Shown piece after piece: positions 2,470-57,871 of a stretch of 64,000 nt of DNA. The stretch comes from Actinomycetes bacterium (lineage in GTDB: Bacteria > Actinomycetota > Actinomycetes > DATJPE01). The translations under genes were made by a program, and so were the position numbers. Numbering within the stretch: position 1 is the first letter of the stretch; each line of letters starts with the position of its first letter. The notes beneath the pieces are model-generated. The model made no database searches and was not told where the DNA came from. It was given only the letters and a program-made list of their open reading frames with translations. Where the stretch lies: positions 4,337-68,336 of the forward strand of contig JANPBY010000004.1 of NCBI GenBank assembly GCA_031430645.1, written 5' to 3'.

Positions 2470-4451
2470 GCGCTCTGCGGTGATGGGGCCAGCGCCACCT
2501 CGAGGGCGGGCGAGGGCACCACCGTCAATGGAAGCAACGTGATGCCGGTGGGGCCGACCTGGATGTCGGTGCCCATCTGGGGGCACACACCGCAGTCGAA
2601 GCACGGGGTCCAGCGACAGTCGTCGACCTCAACCTCTGACAGCGCATCCTGCCAGTCCTCCCAGAGCCACTCTTTGTCCAGGCCGGAGTCGAGGTGGTCC
2701 CAAGGAAGCACCTCGGACTGCTCGCGCTCCCGGGTGGTGAACCACGCGACGTCGACGCCGGTGTCTGCTAAACCTCGATCAGCGGCGGCCATCCAGGCAT
2801 CGAAGGAGAAGTGCTCGCTCCAGCCGTCGAAGCGCGCACCCTGCTCCCAGACTCCTCGGATGACAGCGCCGATCCGTCGGTCGCCGCGTGACAGAAGTCC
2901 CTCGACAGTGCCGGGCTTGCCGTCGTGGTAGCGAACGCCGATCGCACGGGCGAACTGCTTGTCCGCCCGGATCGCCTCACGGAGCTTGGCCAGCCGGGCG
3001 TCGGTGGTCTCGTGATCGAGCTGAGCGGCCCACTGAAACGGCGTGTGCGGCTTAGGCACGAAGCCACCGATCGAGACGGTGCAACGGATATCGCGGCTAC
3101 CACTGGCCTCGCGGCCGGCGCGGATGACGTTCTTCGCCATCTCGGCGATCTGCAGGACGTCCTCGTCTGTCTCGGTGGGGAGACCGCACATGAAGTACAG
3201 CTTCACCTGACGCCACCCGGCGGCGTACGCCGTGGTGACGGTGCGGATTAGGTCTTCCTCACTGACCATCTTGTTGATGACGCGACGCAGGCGCTCGGAT
3301 CCGCCTTCCGGCGCGAAGGTCAGGCCGGAGCGGCGGCCGTTGCGCGAGAGCTCGTTGGCGAGGTCGACGTTGAACGCATCGACCCGGGTGCTGGGCAGCG
3401 ACAGGCTCGTGTTGGTGCCCTCGTAGCGGTCGGCGAGGCCCTTGGCGACCTGGCCGATCTCGGAGTGGTCGGCGCTGGAGAGGCTGAGCAGGCCGACCTC
3501 CTCGTAGCCGGACGCGGCGAGCCCGCGCTCAACCATCTCGCCGATGCCGGTGATAGAGCGCTCGCGAACCGGGCGGGTGATCATGCCGGCCTGGCAGAAC
3601 CGGCAGCCGCGCGTGCAACCGCGGAAGATCTCGACGCTCATCCGCTCGTGGACGGTTTCGGCCAGCGGGACGAGCGGCTGCTTGGGATAGGGCCACTGGT
3701 CGAGGTCCATCACCGTGTGCTTGGCGACCCGCCACGGGACACCCGGCCGGTTGGGAGCCACTCGACGGATCCGGCCGTCGGGCAAGTAGTCGACGTCATA
3801 GAACTGGGGGACATAGACCCCCCCGGTCCGGGCCAGCCGCAGCAACAGTTCCTCGCGCCCGCCGGGACGCCCTTCGCTCTTCCAGGCTGCCGTCACGTCG
3901 GAGATCTCGAGCACCGCCTGCTCGCCATCACCGAGCACGGCTGCGTCGATGAACTCCGCGATTGGCTCCGGGTTGAAGGCTGAGTGACCCCCGGCAATCA
4001 CGACGGGGTGGTCCACTGTGCGGTCGGTGGCGCGCAGCGGGATGCCCGCGAGGTCGAGCGCCGTGAGCATGTTCGTGTAGCCGAGCTCAGTGGAGAAGCT
4101 GATGCCGAACAGATCGAAGTCACCGACTGGACGGTGCCCGTCGACGGTGAACTGCGGCACCTGGTGCTCACGCATCAGGGCTTCGAGGTCGGGCCAGACG
4201 GCGTACGTGCGCTCCGCGAGAGTGTCGGGGCGCTCGTTGAGCACTTCGTACAAGATCATGACGCCCTGGTTGGGCAGCCCGACCTCATAGGCATCGGGAT
4301 ACATCAGCGTCCACCGGACCATGGCGTCGCCATCGCCCCAGGGCTTCACTTGGGCGTTCAGCTCACCGCCGACGTACTGAATCGGCTTGGTCACCAGCGG
4401 CAACAGCGCCTCGAGGCGCGCGAACACCGAGTCACCCGACCGCTCAACCAT
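2466..4451 (-). CDS. TIGR03960 family B12-binding radical SAM protein
   Basis: KPIQYVGGELN, YPDAYEVGLPNQG, CTRGCRFC (CxxxCxxC), C-terminal CRWTPCFDCGVC. Confidence 0.92.
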   Translation of the reverse strand: MVERSGDSVFARLEALLPLVTKPIQYVGGELNAQVKPWGDGDAMVRWTLMYPDAYEVGLPNQGVMILYEVLNERPDTLAERTYAVWPDLEALMREHQVPQFTVDGHRPVGDFDLFGISFSTELGYTNMLTALDLAGIPLRATDRTVDHPVVIAGGHSAFNPEPIAEFIDAAVLGDGEQAVLEISDVTAAWKSEGRPGGREELLLRLARTGGVYVPQFYDVDYLPDGRIRRVAPNRPGVPWRVAKHTVMDLDQWPYPKQPLVPLAETVHERMSVEIFRGCTRGCRFCQAGMITRPVRERSITGIGEMVERGLAASGYEEVGLLSLSSADHSEIGQVAKGLADRYEGTNTSLSLPSTRVDAFNVDLANELSRNGRRSGLTFAPEGGSERLRRVINKMVSEEDLIRTVTTAYAAGWRQVKLYFMCGLPTETDEDVLQIAEMAKNVIRAGREASGSRDIRCTVSIGGFVPKPHTPFQWAAQLDHETTDARLAKLREAIRADKQFARAIGVRYHDGKPGTVEGLLSRGDRRIGAVIRGVWEQGARFDGWSEHFSFDAWMAAADRGLADTGVDVAWFTTREREQSEVLPWDHLDSGLDKEWLWEDWQDALSEVEVDDCRWTPCFDCGVCPQMGTDIQVGPTGITLLPLTVVPSPALEVALAPSPQSA

Positions 4452-4492: not shown

Positions 4493-4552
4493 GTTGATCT
4501 TGAGAGATGTACGGGCGACACGCACGCGCATCGCGCTTCTCTCAAGATCAAC
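4493..4552. repeat. Palindromic hairpin element, left copy (GTTGATCTTGAGAGA-N30-TCTCTCAAGATCAAC)
   Basis: Perfect 15-bp inverted repeat 4493-4507/4538-4552 with a 30-nt spacer; shares the 13-bp arm TGATCTTGAGAGA with the 5601-5662 copy. Confidence 0.92.
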
Positions 4553-4641
4553 CTGGTTGCGGTTCATCAACAGGGGCCGGACTATCCACAAGACCAGCCG
4601 GGAGACTCGGCGGCCCAGCCGCAGCGCCGCACTGTGGACGC

Positions 4642-5588
4642 ATGGCCGGTCCACCGGAAGCCGCAGCGCACGCGCTTGCGTCTAGGCAACTCGGCCTGAT
4701 CACGGCCAAGCAGCTGGCGCGGCTCGGGCTAAGCCGGGGCCGGCTCGCTCATCGGCTCACCACCGGCGCCACACGATCCGTCCTCCCGGGTGTCTACCTC
4801 TTCGATGCCTGGTTACACGCCGAGACTTGGGACGGTCTGCCCTTGGATACCCGGGTGCGGGCAACGGTCCTGTTCCACGGGCCGCAGGCTGTGCTCTGCC
4901 TCGACGCGGCGGCTCGGCTCCTGGGGATCGGCGGAGTGGGCTTGGACTGCGGCGTCATTCATGTCCAGCTGCCACCCGGCACGGAGCGTCATCAAGTGTG
5001 GCGGGCGTGATGATCCACACCCGACTGCTCGCCGCTGATGAAGTCATGATCGTCAACGGGATCCCCGTCACGACACCACAGCGCACCGTCCTCGACCTTG
5101 TGCTCAGTTCAGACCGACTGCGCGCCGTCTCCATCCTGGACTCCGCGCTCAATGGCAAACTGATCGACCCGGCGGACATTCCGGACATGAGGCGGAGGGG
5201 GTGGCGGCGGCGGGGCGCGGCCATCGCCCGGGGGTGGTGGGACCTCGCCGACGGCCGAGCCCAATCACCCCTCGAGACCGACGTACGGCTGATCGCGACT
5301 GACGCTGACATGCCCCCTGACGAACTCCAGTACCCCGTGCGAGATTCATGGGGGACGCTACTCGGGTACGGCGATCTCGCGTGGCTACGGCCGGGTCGCC
5401 GCACGCTCATTGCCGAAGCCGACGGCAAAGAGCCCCACAGTCGGCCGCAGGCGCTGTTCCGGGACCGCCACCGGGCCAATGACTTCATCACCACCGGAGA
5501 CGTGGACATCGTCCGGTTCACTGCTGCCGACACCTATCGCAAGGCGTACATCGTCAGCCAACTCAGGCGGCTCCTAGGCCGCGAGTAA
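4642..5588 (+). pseudogene. AbiEi-antitoxin-like N-domain + DUF559/Vsr-like PD-(D/E)xK endonuclease, split by a frameshift near 4996-5010
   Basis: 5' part MAGPPEAAAHALASRQLGLITAKQL...VLPGVY stops at 5010. 3' frame continues VAGVMIH...GIPVTTPQRTVLDL...AQSPLETDVRL...GYGDLAW...LIAEADGKEPH...RDRHRANDF. Removing one TG from GTGTG (4996-5000) restores a single 314-aa ORF. Confidence 0.75.
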
Positions 5589-5600
5589 GCCCAAAATAGT

Positions 5601-5662
5601 CGCTGATCTTGAGAGAAGCACGCGCGGTACGGCGCGGCATTGTGCATCTCTCAAGATCAGCG
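5601..5662. repeat. Palindromic hairpin element, right copy (CGCTGATCTTGAGAGA-N30-TCTCTCAAGATCAGCG)
   Basis: Perfect 16-bp inverted repeat 5601-5616/5647-5662 with a 30-nt spacer; inverted relative to the left copy as judged by the spacer ends. Confidence 0.92.
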
Positions 5663-22219: not shown

Positions 22220-22373
22220 CTCGAGAGTCTCCTTCGTGCCGGGGAAAGACGAATCCGACGGTACCCCGACACACCCTCACATGGCTCCCTCATTGTGCGG
22301 GCGCGTCGCCTTTTGCGCTCAGGGCGAACCTCCGCACCCATTCAGACCAACCCCGCAGCGAACTACAGAAAGA

Positions 22374-22473
22374 GGACGTGGCGTGAGGTCCGCGGTCCCG
22401 CAGAGTTCGTAGGGAGCTCGCCGTAGGCGGCGGGTGTAGAACTTGAAGGGAGTGCGGACCTCACGCCACGTCC
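22374..22473. repeat. Dispersed palindromic (REP/REPIN-like) element, copy 1
   Basis: Perfect 20-bp inverted repeat 22374-22393/22454-22473 around a 58-nt core (22396-22453) that is 55/58 identical to 46875-46932. Confidence 0.88.
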
Positions 22474-22497
22474 GGCTCTCACGACCAGAGAGCGAAC

Positions 22498-23984: not shown

Positions 23985-24260
23985 TCAGGCCTCTTCGTGC
24001 GCAATCGCCACGTTGCCGTCGGCGTCGGCCACAGCGATGGTTTCCGACACAACCTGCAGGTCACCGTTGTCATCGGCGACGGCGATCGTCTCTTCCATGA
24101 TCACGTCGCCCGCTTCGTCAGCAGCGATGATCGTGTCATCAACGGCCACGATGTTGCCGTCTTCATCGATGACCTCGACGAGGTCCTCCACGACGGCGAT
24201 GCCATCCTCAGTTACTCCACTGGTGATCTCTTCGACAATCTCGAAGCCTTCGCCGTTCAC
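23985..24260 (-). CDS. Small acidic repeat protein (91 aa), unknown function
   Basis: Strong GGGAGG RBS before GTG; TAGGTT -10 at 24308-24313; 27 Asp/Glu and no Lys/Arg; periodic DxDG turns. Confidence 0.75.
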   Translation of the reverse strand: MNGEGFEIVEEITSGVTEDGIAVVEDLVEVIDEDGNIVAVDDTIIAADEAGDVIMEETIAVADDNGDLQVVSETIAVADADGNVAIAHEEA

Positions 24261-46815: not shown

Positions 46816-46950
46816 GGCACGACGAGGGGCCGAACTCCCGCAGAGTTCGTACGGAGCACGACGAGGGGCCGAACTCCCGCAGAGTTCGTAGGGAGCACGC
46901 CGAAGGCGGCGGGTGTAGAACTCGAAGGGAGTTCGGCCCCTCGTCGTGCC
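46816..46950. repeat. Dispersed palindromic (REP/REPIN-like) element, copy 2, with a tandem-duplicated left arm
   Basis: 35-bp direct repeat at 46817-46851 and 46856-46890 (period 39); 23-bp perfect inverted repeat 46856-46878/46927-46949; core 46875-46932 is 55/58 identical to 22396-22453. Confidence 0.9.
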
Positions 46951-55774: not shown

Positions 55775-57871
55775 ATGACCTCCGATCCCGGCCGTCCGGA
55801 CTACCCAGTCGCCCATCGACTCGACCTCGTCGAGGACCTCCACGGTCACAAGGTGAGCGACCCCTATCGCTGGTTGGAGACCTCAGATGATCCGGCGACC
55901 AAGGAGTGGGGCGCGGCCCAGGACGCCTTGTTGGTCTCCCAGCGCGCAACCTGGCCGGGTCAGGACGCCCTGCGCGCCCGGATGGGCCAGTTGCTCGACG
56001 CGGGCATCGTCTCCGCCCCCGTCTGGCGGGGTGAGCGCCAGTTCTTCATGCGCCGCAACGCTGCGCAGGAGCATGCCGTACTCCTGACCGTCGACCCTGA
56101 TGGCACCGAGCGGGTCCTCATCGACCCCATGGCCCTGGATGCCACTGGCTTGACGACCCTCGACACCTGGCAGCCCACAAAGGAAGGTCACCTCCTCGCC
56201 TACCAGGTGTCCGAAGGCGGCACCGAACAGGCGGTGCTTCGCGTCATCGACGTCACGACTGGCGAGATCGTCGACGGCCCGATCGACCGGGCCAGATACT
56301 CACCGGTGGCCTGGCTGCCTGGCGGCAGGTCTTACTACTACGTACGTCGGCTGGCTCCCGAGCTGGTGCCCGACGGCGAGGAGCAGTTCCACCGACGCGT
56401 GTGGCTGCACCGGCTGGGCACCGATCCAGCCGAAGACGTCCTCGTCTTCGGCGAGGGACGCAAGCACACCGAGTATTACGGAGCCTCGGTCAGCCGCGAC
56501 GGGCGATGGCTGCAGGTCTCGGCTTCGGAAGGCACCGAACCCCGAAACGACCTCTATCTGGCTGATCTGACGACCAGCTCCCTGGATGGACCCGATCTTC
56601 GTCCCGTTCAGGTAGACGTCGATGCTCAGACCGGACTCGAGGTGTGCCGCGACGGCCGGGTGCTGGTCTTCACTGACCGTGACGCGCCCAGGGGTCGGCT
56701 CTGCTTCACGACACCTGACCACCTCGAGGTCGACGACTGGACCGATCTGCTCGCCGAGGACCCGATCGCCGTGCTCGACGGTTACGCCGTCCTGGACGGA
56801 CCTGAGCTCGACTCACCCGTCCTGCTCGCATCCTGGACCCGGCACGCGGTGTCTGAGCTAACGGTCCACGACTTGGCCACCGGACTGCAACTTGCGGACG
56901 TGCCCCTCCCCGGGGTCGGCACGATCGGCGGCATCATCGAACGACCGGAGGGAGGACACGAGGCGTGGTTCGGCTACACCGACCACACCACCCCCTCCAC
57001 CGTCCAGCGCTATGACGCCCGCACCGGCGAAACGACACTGTGGGCCACGGCGCCGGGCACGGTCGATGTCCCGCCGATCACGACGCAACAGGTCACCTAC
57101 CAGTCTGCTGACGGCACCGAGGTGCGCATGTTCGTCATCTCCAAGACGGGCGACCCCACCGGTCCCCGGCCGACGATCCTCTACGGCTACGGCGGGTTCG
57201 GCCTCCCACTGACCCCCGGATTCTCGGCCACCGTGCTTTCGTGGGTCGAAGCTGGGGGCGTCTGGGCCGTCGCTGGGCTGCGCGGCGGTGGCGAAGAAGG
57301 CGAGCAATGGCACCGCGACGGGATGCTGGGCAACAAGCAGAACGTCTTCGACGACTTCCACGCCGCGGCTGAGTGGCTGGTCGACAACGAGTGGACGACT
57401 GCCGACCAGCTAGCCATCAACGGCGGCTCAAACGGTGGGCTGCTGGTGGGCGGCGCGGTCACCCAACGACCCGAACTCTTCGCAGCGGTGGTCTGCTCGG
57501 CGCCACTTCTCGACATGGTGCGTTACGAACAGTTCGGCCTCGGCGCGACGTGGAACGTCGAGTACGGCTCGGCCGCGCTGCCAGAGGAACTCGCCTGGTT
57601 GCTCGCGTATTCGCCCTACCACCGCGTCGTCGAGGGCACCGACTACCCGGCCACGTTGTTCACGGTTTTCGACGGTGACTCCCGGGTCGACCCGTTACAC
57701 GCCCGCAAGCTGTGCGCGGCGATGCAGCACGCGACCTCAGGAAACCGGCCGATCCTCATCCGCGCTGAACCTGATGTCGGGCACGGAGCGCGCGCCGTGA
57801 GTCGGTCGATCGACTTGTCGGTGGAGGTGCTGGCCTTCACTGCAGCGCACACAGGTCTTGCACTGACGTGA
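55775..57871 (+). CDS. Prolyl oligopeptidase (S9A)
   Basis: DPYRWLE, YGYGGF, GGSNGG (Ser), DSRV (Asp), GHG (His); TAGGTT -10 7 nt before ATG. Confidence 0.94.
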   Translation: MTSDPGRPDYPVAHRLDLVEDLHGHKVSDPYRWLETSDDPATKEWGAAQDALLVSQRATWPGQDALRARMGQLLDAGIVSAPVWRGERQFFMRRNAAQEHAVLLTVDPDGTERVLIDPMALDATGLTTLDTWQPTKEGHLLAYQVSEGGTEQAVLRVIDVTTGEIVDGPIDRARYSPVAWLPGGRSYYYVRRLAPELVPDGEEQFHRRVWLHRLGTDPAEDVLVFGEGRKHTEYYGASVSRDGRWLQVSASEGTEPRNDLYLADLTTSSLDGPDLRPVQVDVDAQTGLEVCRDGRVLVFTDRDAPRGRLCFTTPDHLEVDDWTDLLAEDPIAVLDGYAVLDGPELDSPVLLASWTRHAVSELTVHDLATGLQLADVPLPGVGTIGGIIERPEGGHEAWFGYTDHTTPSTVQRYDARTGETTLWATAPGTVDVPPITTQQVTYQSADGTEVRMFVISKTGDPTGPRPTILYGYGGFGLPLTPGFSATVLSWVEAGGVWAVAGLRGGGEEGEQWHRDGMLGNKQNVFDDFHAAAEWLVDNEWTTADQLAINGGSNGGLLVGGAVTQRPELFAAVVCSAPLLDMVRYEQFGLGATWNVEYGSAALPEELAWLLAYSPYHRVVEGTDYPATLFTVFDGDSRVDPLHARKLCAAMQHATSGNRPILIRAEPDVGHGARAVSRSIDLSVEVLAFTAAHTGLALT

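Follow-up and report, generated by a model that had tools for sequence, protein, structure and literature searches.

Two palindromic modules in the window

The window, by which we mean the whole 64-kb stretch of DNA analysed, carries two copies of a 58-nt core, each enclosed in a long perfect stem. The first lies between the minus-strand genes clpP2 and clpX, and the second between minus-strand genes for a PP2C/SpoIIE phosphatase and a carboxyltransferase, 28 nt downstream of the stop codon of the former and upstream of the latter. The cores are identical at 55 of 58 positions; the core pattern matched exactly at both places and nowhere else in the window, and 100 shuffles yielded no match. 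The stems are perfect over 20 bp at the first site and, counting TCCC/GGGA, over 23 bp at the second. When the arms were anchored at the core junction they were 38% identical, against 37% expected from composition, and the arms of the window pair are therefore unrelated. The three core differences fall at places that look structure-neutral: an unpaired base in the 5' strand of the internal loop, the middle base of a GWA triloop, and a position in helix P2 that is either G-C or G-T. The folding z-scores of the window copies ranged from -8.5 to -10.8. The first-pass annotation, made from the sequence alone, had described the repeated core, the perfect but unrelated stems, the neutrality of the three differences and the minus-strand gene context, and all of this held on reanalysis. 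The coordinates of these and other features are collected in Table 1.

Table 1. Features of the two window copies and of other repeat families encountered (C, contigs of the source genome).
Feature	Position	Strand	Remark
Whole inserted module, site 1	22330..22497	+	162 nt plus second GCGAAC; from alignment with six relatives
clpP2 stop codon	22498-22500	minus	bounds the site-1 module; the other side is the conserved clpX leader
GCGAAC, left direct-repeat copy bounding the insertion	22324..22329	.	candidate target-site duplication
GCGAAC, right direct-repeat copy	22492..22497	.	
5' frame, site 1	22336..22373	+	C/A-rich tract and CCCCGCAGCGAAC..AGAAAGAG
Outer stem 5' arm, site 1	22374..22393	+	20 nt, copy-specific, G-rich
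Conserved core, site 1	22396..22453	+	
P1b, site 1	22396-22399/22448-22451	+	
3x3 loop, site 1		+	GCA/GAA
P2, site 1	22403-22408/22439-22444	+	
5' loop strand, site 1	22409-22418	+	GTAGGGAGCT
P3, site 1	22419-22422/22426-22429	+	GTA triloop
3' loop strand, site 1	22430-22438	+	GCGGGTGTA
Outer stem 3' arm, site 1	22454..22473	+	20 nt
Tandem duplication, site 2	46817..46855	+	39 nt: left arm and first 20 nt of core, one mismatch; junction at GCACG microhomology
Complete hairpin, site 2	46856..46949	+	core 46875-46932
Perfect stem, site 2	46856-46878/46927-46949		
AbiEi/DUF559 framing hairpins, window	4493-4552 and 5600-5662		cassette 4493-5662
AbiEi/DUF559 framing hairpins, source genome	C9:22959-23020, 24039-24102; C109:3139-3200, 4201-4258; C104:8646-8708		
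REP-like palindrome, copies include	C61:21081-21143, C71:40-110, C80:34319-34383, C88:17100-17162, C102:3936-4008		
REP-like palindrome, further copies	C113:55686-55760, 56219-56287; C211:2357-2509		
MITE-like element	C2:27126-27271, C27:30146-30299, C88:13593-13732, C163:7538-7677, C180:14541-14687, C213:6523-6676		
MITE-like element halves	C129:24618-25842		flank a DUF559-like gene
Fourth hairpin family, G001	L025 ~2124-2585	reverse	
Fourth hairpin family, source genome	C83:11052-11140, C172:2699-2772, C190:30588-30679, C205:3364-3451		

A conserved apex on a sequence-free stem

Family members share one fold, in which a variable outer stem leads through a 3x3 internal loop into helix P2 (6-7 bp), an asymmetric purine-rich internal loop and finally the P3 hairpin. 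The base stem is 15-30 bp long, free in sequence, and ends in YCC(C)/(G)GGR; the apex is a conserved structured domain of 56-60 nt that includes P1b. The purine-rich loop has the consensus GT[A/T]G[G/A]GA[G/A]C facing G[G/T]G[G/A][A/T]G[C/T]A, and P3 is a G+C hairpin of 4-8 bp, mostly closed by a GAA or GTA (GNA) triloop and often reading GCGAAGC. GNA triloops of this kind, GCGAAGC among them, form very stable DNA mini-hairpins. In a structural alignment of 27 copies, which was fitted to the model and includes some non-independent copies from arrays, 96.4% of cells were paired, against 40-45% when the partners were slid; 18 of the 23 pairs had changed on both sides, and no shuffle reached any of these measures. 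P2 occurs as GAGTTC/GAACTC, GGTTTC/GAAACC, GCGTTC/GAACGC and GGGTTC/GAACCC, and P3 as CGCC/GGCG, CGCGGC/GCCGCG, CGTGGC/GCCACG and GTC/GAC. The fold is thus strongly supported by pairing and by compensatory changes.

The wobble pair that distinguishes the two window cores had been proposed to work on the plus (core) strand, which neither operon transcribes, and the wider family agreed: across the outer stems of 28 copies, which are partly non-independent, G.T pairs outnumbered A.C pairs by 35 to 15 when read on the core strand. This preference was seen whatever the gene direction, at 9:3 where the core is antisense to the upstream gene and 14:4 where it is sense. Whether folded as RNA or as DNA, the core strand had a stability advantage of 2-8 kcal/mol over its complement. 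The strand that folds would be the core strand, either as single-stranded DNA or as an RNA made independently of the neighbouring genes; we found no promoter-like sites inside or beside the core.

A family confined to one actinobacterial clade

By BLAST and a covariance model, the source genome (3.16 Mb, 230 contigs, 67% G+C) has 11 copies, so that the window pair belongs to a dispersed structured family, as first supposed, rather than being a two-copy coincidence. Seven of the copies are of type A, with the apex strands GTAGGGAGCT / GCGGGTGTA of the first window site; one is of type B, with GTTGAGAAC / GTGAAGCA; and in the three of type C the small apical hairpin is swapped for a C/A-rich insert of ~35 nt. 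With a broader covariance model, six other genomes of the same taxonomic family had one to six copies each, G069, a genome of another family, had one, and ~393 other genomes of the class had none; the genomes are MAGs, 69-99% complete. A degenerate pattern run over ~185,000 species representatives gave true matches only in uncultured Actinomycetota MAGs of the clade, and four matches in unrelated phyla, which scored 12-13 bits with the covariance model, were discarded as chance. Two further members came from soil metagenome contigs. The only carriers are one group of uncultured soil actinobacteria.

Several other origins and identities were considered. A phage origin was rejected, viral contigs giving no match, and so was a role of the arms as guides, which had no genomic matches beyond the arms themselves. 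In the window, Rfam 15 matched only tRNAs and no family reached its gathering score at the hairpins; a permissive Rfam search returned generic miRNA-precursor hairpins far below threshold. The core motif does not appear in the searchable literature, where it matched only unrelated primers and shRNA sequences. As side observations on the source assembly (a MAG of 95% completeness), its 230 contigs contain no 16S or 23S rRNA signature sequences, and C216:1-95 is a run of more than 40 C at the contig start, probably an assembly or sequencing artefact.

Copies of types A, B and C in the source genome have a common frame beyond the arms, made up on the core strand of a C/A-rich tract and GCAGCAA(A/C)G, the latter recurring 3-15 nt from the stem. 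On the other strand the frame reads as a T-rich tail, TTGCTGCG, with G/T tracts that are telomere-like in two copies; at the first window site the minus strand of the frame places such a tail (TCTTTCTGTAGTTCGCTGCGGGGTTGG) straight after the hairpin. The tail holds 4.4 T per 12 nt versus 0.9, and lies opposite the core strand in 6-7 of 9 loci of the source genome. Neither frame nor tail was found in the other carrier genomes. We rejected the idea that the tail motif is a general terminator feature of the source genome, where it is essentially confined to the studied family. The frame could be a terminator U tract, either co-opted or carried along. Separately, the telomere-like G/T repeats GGGGTTGGGTTTGGGGTTCGGGGTTGGGGG and GGGTTTTGGGTTTTGGGTTTGG (C224:4521-4560 and C69:15109-15130) abut two copies; these tracts are potential G-quadruplex motifs and elsewhere are no commoner than in shuffled sequence.

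Genomic position and empty sites

With few exceptions, a copy is found 7-60 nt past a stop codon, in an operon spacer or a convergent one, and the orientation of the core to the upstream gene is about 50:50, as tabulated from crude ORF/GC3 gene calls. Tandem arrays of modules occur on C104 of the source genome and in G004 and G006. One copy is universal: all 8 genomes, and the metagenome contig L233, carry it in the spacer that separates infB from the DUF503 gene ahead of rbfA (in the source genome an assembly break falls inside this copy, with the end of C69 and the start of C81 overlapping by 20 nt). In other actinomycetes infB is often followed by a plain hairpin that lacks the family core, and the founding copy may have been the one in the infB-DUF503 spacer, where they have such a post-gene hairpin. 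That three genera retain a single copy at the same locus suggests a host function more than a selfish element. As a side observation, contig L141 (JAJAYQ010000041.1) bears the label 'Spirochaetaceae bacterium' and has, next to an infB end, a gene whose DUF503 product is 80% identical to that of the clade; it is likely a mis-binned actinobacterial contig.

In the empty-site comparison that the first reading had called for, both window copies were absent at the orthologous sites of relatives. At clpP2-clpX, six relatives lack the whole block: the empty site of G001 reads GGGCGAAC followed at once by TCAGCT, and the window has 162 extra nt and then a second GCGAAC. The insertion is bounded exactly by this 6-nt direct repeat, which we regard as a candidate target-site duplication from the alignment; a third GCGAAC lies inside the module (22358-22363). 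At the C182 site, convergent stop codons stand ~9 nt apart in relatives versus ~160 nt in the source genome, with no clear duplication. Blocks of ~150-168 nt have thus been inserted at these two sites, where the spacers of relatives measure ~10 nt. In G001 the second window site is occupied by two hairpins that belong to a different family (GGCGGGAGGCCGAGCG[C/A]AGCGAGGCCGGATGG), which is also present in the source genome; at the C17 site relatives carry a different, plain hairpin, and the C113 and C224 spacers could not be aligned with those of relatives. A clean direct repeat was found at one insertion site only, the module ends have no terminal inverted repeats, and no copy adjoins a transposase gene. 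As a separate observation, the clpP2-clpX spacer of G003 (L017) has a tandem repeat, (GGATAGCC)x4, where the source genome has the hairpin module.

Concerted arm drift and in-place flipping of the apex

Orthologous loci allowed us to follow single copies over time. At the infB locus of G003 and G004 the coding flanks are ~90% identical and the core 98%, and the arms are 62% identical, with compensatory partners. The C224 copy of the source genome and its counterpart on contig L238 have arms 81% identical, together with a compensated 1-bp insertion in P2. These comparisons show that, once copied, the arms diverge at about the neutral rate yet remain complementary; the apex is under purifying selection. 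Arms are shared between loci too: certain copies at non-orthologous loci have an arm identity of 0.75-0.88 (G003_278148 scored 0.81 against G003_C3 and 0.88 against G004_C2b), and in the source genome 13 of 16 arm positions match between the infB copy and C104b. Between loci with shared arms the module (80-144 nt) is the only homology. Because the arms are inherited at orthologous loci and shared at others, they move with the core; the module of frame, arms and core is copied whole to sites just after stop codons and is amplified locally in tandem. Since the arms at orthologous loci change while remaining paired, age and concerted arm evolution, rather than regeneration, account for the unrelated stems of the window pair.

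Two arguments that might have been drawn from the unrelated stems were abandoned. One held that paralogous stems are too unlike for their cores, and was dropped since the orthologous infB pair of G003 and G004 itself combines 98% core with 62% arm identity. The other took a conserved core with unrelated stems to be a habit of four families in the source genome; the second and third of these have conserved stems.

The orientation of the apex also changes between orthologues. In the infB spacer, G002 and G006 have the core in sense orientation; in G001, G003, G004, G005, G069, L233 and the source genome it is antisense. A second locus, between a L,D-transpeptidase-like gene and a convergent membrane protein gene, has one copy in G003 and three in tandem in G004; here the right arm and flank are homologous (GACCCGACTCTCCACAC vs GACCCGACCCTGCAGC) and the core is inverted. 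Judged from these alignments, the core is inverted between conserved arms at two orthologous loci. An inverted core beside a homologous right arm and flank implies in-place flipping of the apex between the arms of one and the same copy, and such flips explain the mixed core orientations. Both the complementarity of the arms and the flips could arise from intrastrand pairing together with arm-to-arm templated correction or recombination.

Candidate partners and other repeat families

The first-pass annotation had envisaged an enzyme acting in trans from elsewhere, and no enzyme is in fact encoded next to the copies. The Pfam family Y1_Tnp (PF01797; RAYT/IS200) had no match in any of the 8 carriers (69-99% complete), and 6 control genomes scored over the cut-off. 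A single DUF559 gene, on C104, is bracketed by family copies; just 1 of ~30 copies is adjacent to such a gene, and the identity of DUF559 paralogues does not track family copy number. The DUF559/AbiEi genes moreover have a hairpin family of their own (TGATCAAGGA...TCCTTGATCA), unlike the studied one. DUF559 was rejected as a partner on these three grounds (own hairpins, no other copy nearby, paralogue identity unrelated to copy number), and because such genes carry their own hairpins, the one on C104 is a separate cassette which has inserted into a tandem array.

Other repeats came to light in the same searches (Table 1). Genes for AbiEi/DUF559-type nucleases, with 3-7 paralogues per genome in the clade, are framed by (G)TTGATCAAGGA...TCCTTGATCAAC or TGATCTTGAGAGA... 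hairpins. A REP-like palindrome of ~70 nt with conserved stems (CCCCGCTGAGTGTGACGTT..GTACGCGACACGCGGCGTGTCGCGTAC..AACGTCACACTCAGCGGGG) has at least 11 copies in the source genome, which is without a Y1 transposase; its C211 copy is a perfect palindrome of 153 nt with 61-bp arms. A MITE-like element of ~150 nt with conserved terminal inverted repeats (CTTCACGCGCGACACGCCGTCCTCAC) has at least seven copies. A fourth hairpin family (core GGCGGGAGGCCGAGCGAAGCGAGGCCGGATGG), two copies of which fill the G001 spacer orthologous to the second window site, has partly copy-specific stems. It has GGGAG, GGATG and a GCGAAGC-type hairpin in common with the studied family, and may for that reason be its distant relative.

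Discussion

The family described here is a clade-specific, structured, RAYT-less variant of the bacterial palindromic intergenic repeats. For the window pair itself we favour, with rather more confidence than doubt, the reading that it belongs to clade-restricted palindromic intergenic repeat modules of ~100-170 nt that are copied whole and whose arms drift in concert. The conserved internal loop would then be the putative recognition site of a clade-specific protein outside the Y1/HUH class. In transcripts, the long stem is probably a 3'-end or attenuator hairpin whichever way round it lies.

The rival that survives best, though we think it unlikely, is that the hairpins are cis-acting RNA elements of the host: 3'-UTR or intercistronic terminators, attenuators or processing hairpins whose apex binds a clade-specific RNA-binding protein, with rare duplications kept as useful. 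The placement of nearly all copies 7-60 nt after a stop codon would suit such elements, as would the universal infB-DUF503-rbfA copy, kept in at least nine genomes, and the plain hairpins in the same spacers of relatives; protein-binding RNAs typically combine conserved loops with covarying helices, and in the source-genome subfamily a T-rich tail directly follows the hairpin on one strand. That tail is absent outside the source genome, however, and a transcript-borne element sits poorly with an orientation of about 50:50 to the upstream gene and with wobble pairs that favour the core strand also where it lies antisense to genes (9:3). The apex, moreover, has been inverted between close species at two orthologous loci, yet is 93-98% conserved, and no Rfam family matches.

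A bolder version of the preferred whole-module copying, which we consider quite unlikely, would see a RAYT-independent REP-like system of the Actinomycetota, in which an undescribed, clade-specific, non-HUH protein that recognises structure docks on the purine-rich internal loop and copies whole modules to just after stop codons. This system would have been founded on an ancient functional hairpin of infB-DUF503-rbfA, and the in-place flip of the apex might act as a heritable two-state switch.

It is improbable that the core alone is mobile and inserts into the apical loop of pre-existing terminator hairpins whose stems are native to the site. In its favour, the sites are terminator niches, relatives having plain hairpins after infB and in the C17 spacer; paralogous stems are mostly unrelated; and the core is found in both orientations. 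Against it, in-place flips between conserved arms account for the changes of orientation, and non-orthologous copies share arms at 75-88% and, in the source genome, the 5' frame as well. At clpP2-clpX and C182 the ~10-nt spacers of relatives are too short to contain a hairpin, and the entire ~150-168-nt block is new.

Least probable is the original proposal, in which a RAYT/TnpA(Y1)-type or DUF559/GIY-YIG enzyme acts in trans to mobilise a REPIN-like element recognised as single-stranded DNA, and every insertion regenerates the stems: palindromic extragenic repeats, GTAG in type A cores, the bias toward core-strand folding, stable GNA triloops and one DUF559 gene bracketed by copies speak for it, but Y1_Tnp is absent from 8 of 8 carriers with positive controls, which refutes Y1/RAYT as far as 69-99% complete genomes allow, the proposed GTAG tag becomes GTTG or GCAG in type B cores, the repeats number 1-11 and are not two inverted REPs, the arms are inherited, drift with compensation and are in part shared at 75-88% between non-orthologous copies, and the sole adjacent DUF559 gene belongs to a separate cassette of a type that has its own hairpin family and whose similarity is unrelated to the number of copies. 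The candidate 6-nt duplication is likewise unlike HUH transposition, of which a target duplication of this size is not expected.

The family invites comparison with several known systems. REP/REPIN repeats of Proteobacteria, with their RAYTs, are short extragenic palindromes after genes that persist vertically within a lineage, sometimes with A/T runs suggesting co-option for attenuation, and their literature includes long palindromes in which an arm and its complement enclose a palindrome (PMC3116915, PMC3337134). The studied family resembles them in being short, extragenic, placed after genes and vertically persistent. Unlike them, it has no RAYT/Y1 gene in any carrier (a RAYT is typically flanked by repeats) and 1-11 copies per genome rather than tens to hundreds; it forms a single nested hairpin with an asymmetric conserved apex rather than two inverted REPs round a spacer, is conserved at the apex and not the stem, and has its GTAG in an internal loop (GTTG/GCAG in type B) rather than at the foot of the palindrome.

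ERIC/IRU, Correia/NEMIS and BIME/RIP are MITE-like intergenic repeats with conserved terminal inverted repeats. Like them, our modules are imperfect long hairpins of ~100-170 nt in transcribed spacers, in either orientation and with a possible target-site duplication at one site; unlike them, the arms are sequence-free and the centre is conserved and covarying, and we found no parent insertion sequence for the family. The attC sites of integrons are imperfect palindromes after gene ends, in which structure is conserved over stem sequence and one strand folds as single-stranded DNA. The studied family likewise lies directly after gene ends and conserves structure rather than stem sequence, but its layout is the opposite of attC, where the outer R and L boxes are conserved and the apex varies; no RYYYAAC/GTTRRRY boxes, integrase or cassette array were seen with it. 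In chloroplast non-coding DNA, hairpin loops are described that flip in place between inverted-repeat arms, recurrently and between close relatives (PMC7393888, citing Kelchner and Wendel 1996; Kim and Lee 2005). Our apex flips between its arms in the same manner, although the flipped segment is no anonymous loop but a conserved structured 56-nt domain of a multi-copy family.

For repeat finders keyed on stem sequence the family is a caution, and its 56-nt core offers a bait for finding a new DNA- or RNA-structure-binding protein. Palindromic intergenic repeats are understood mainly in Proteobacteria, where they are explained by the RAYT transposase. An uncultured actinobacterial clade now presents the opposite pattern of conservation, a fixed structured apex on free stems, without a RAYT and with a universal copy in a core translation operon. 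Orthologous comparisons show where perfect but unrelated stems come from, namely arms that drift in concert, and they likewise show in-place flipping of hairpin apices in bacteria.
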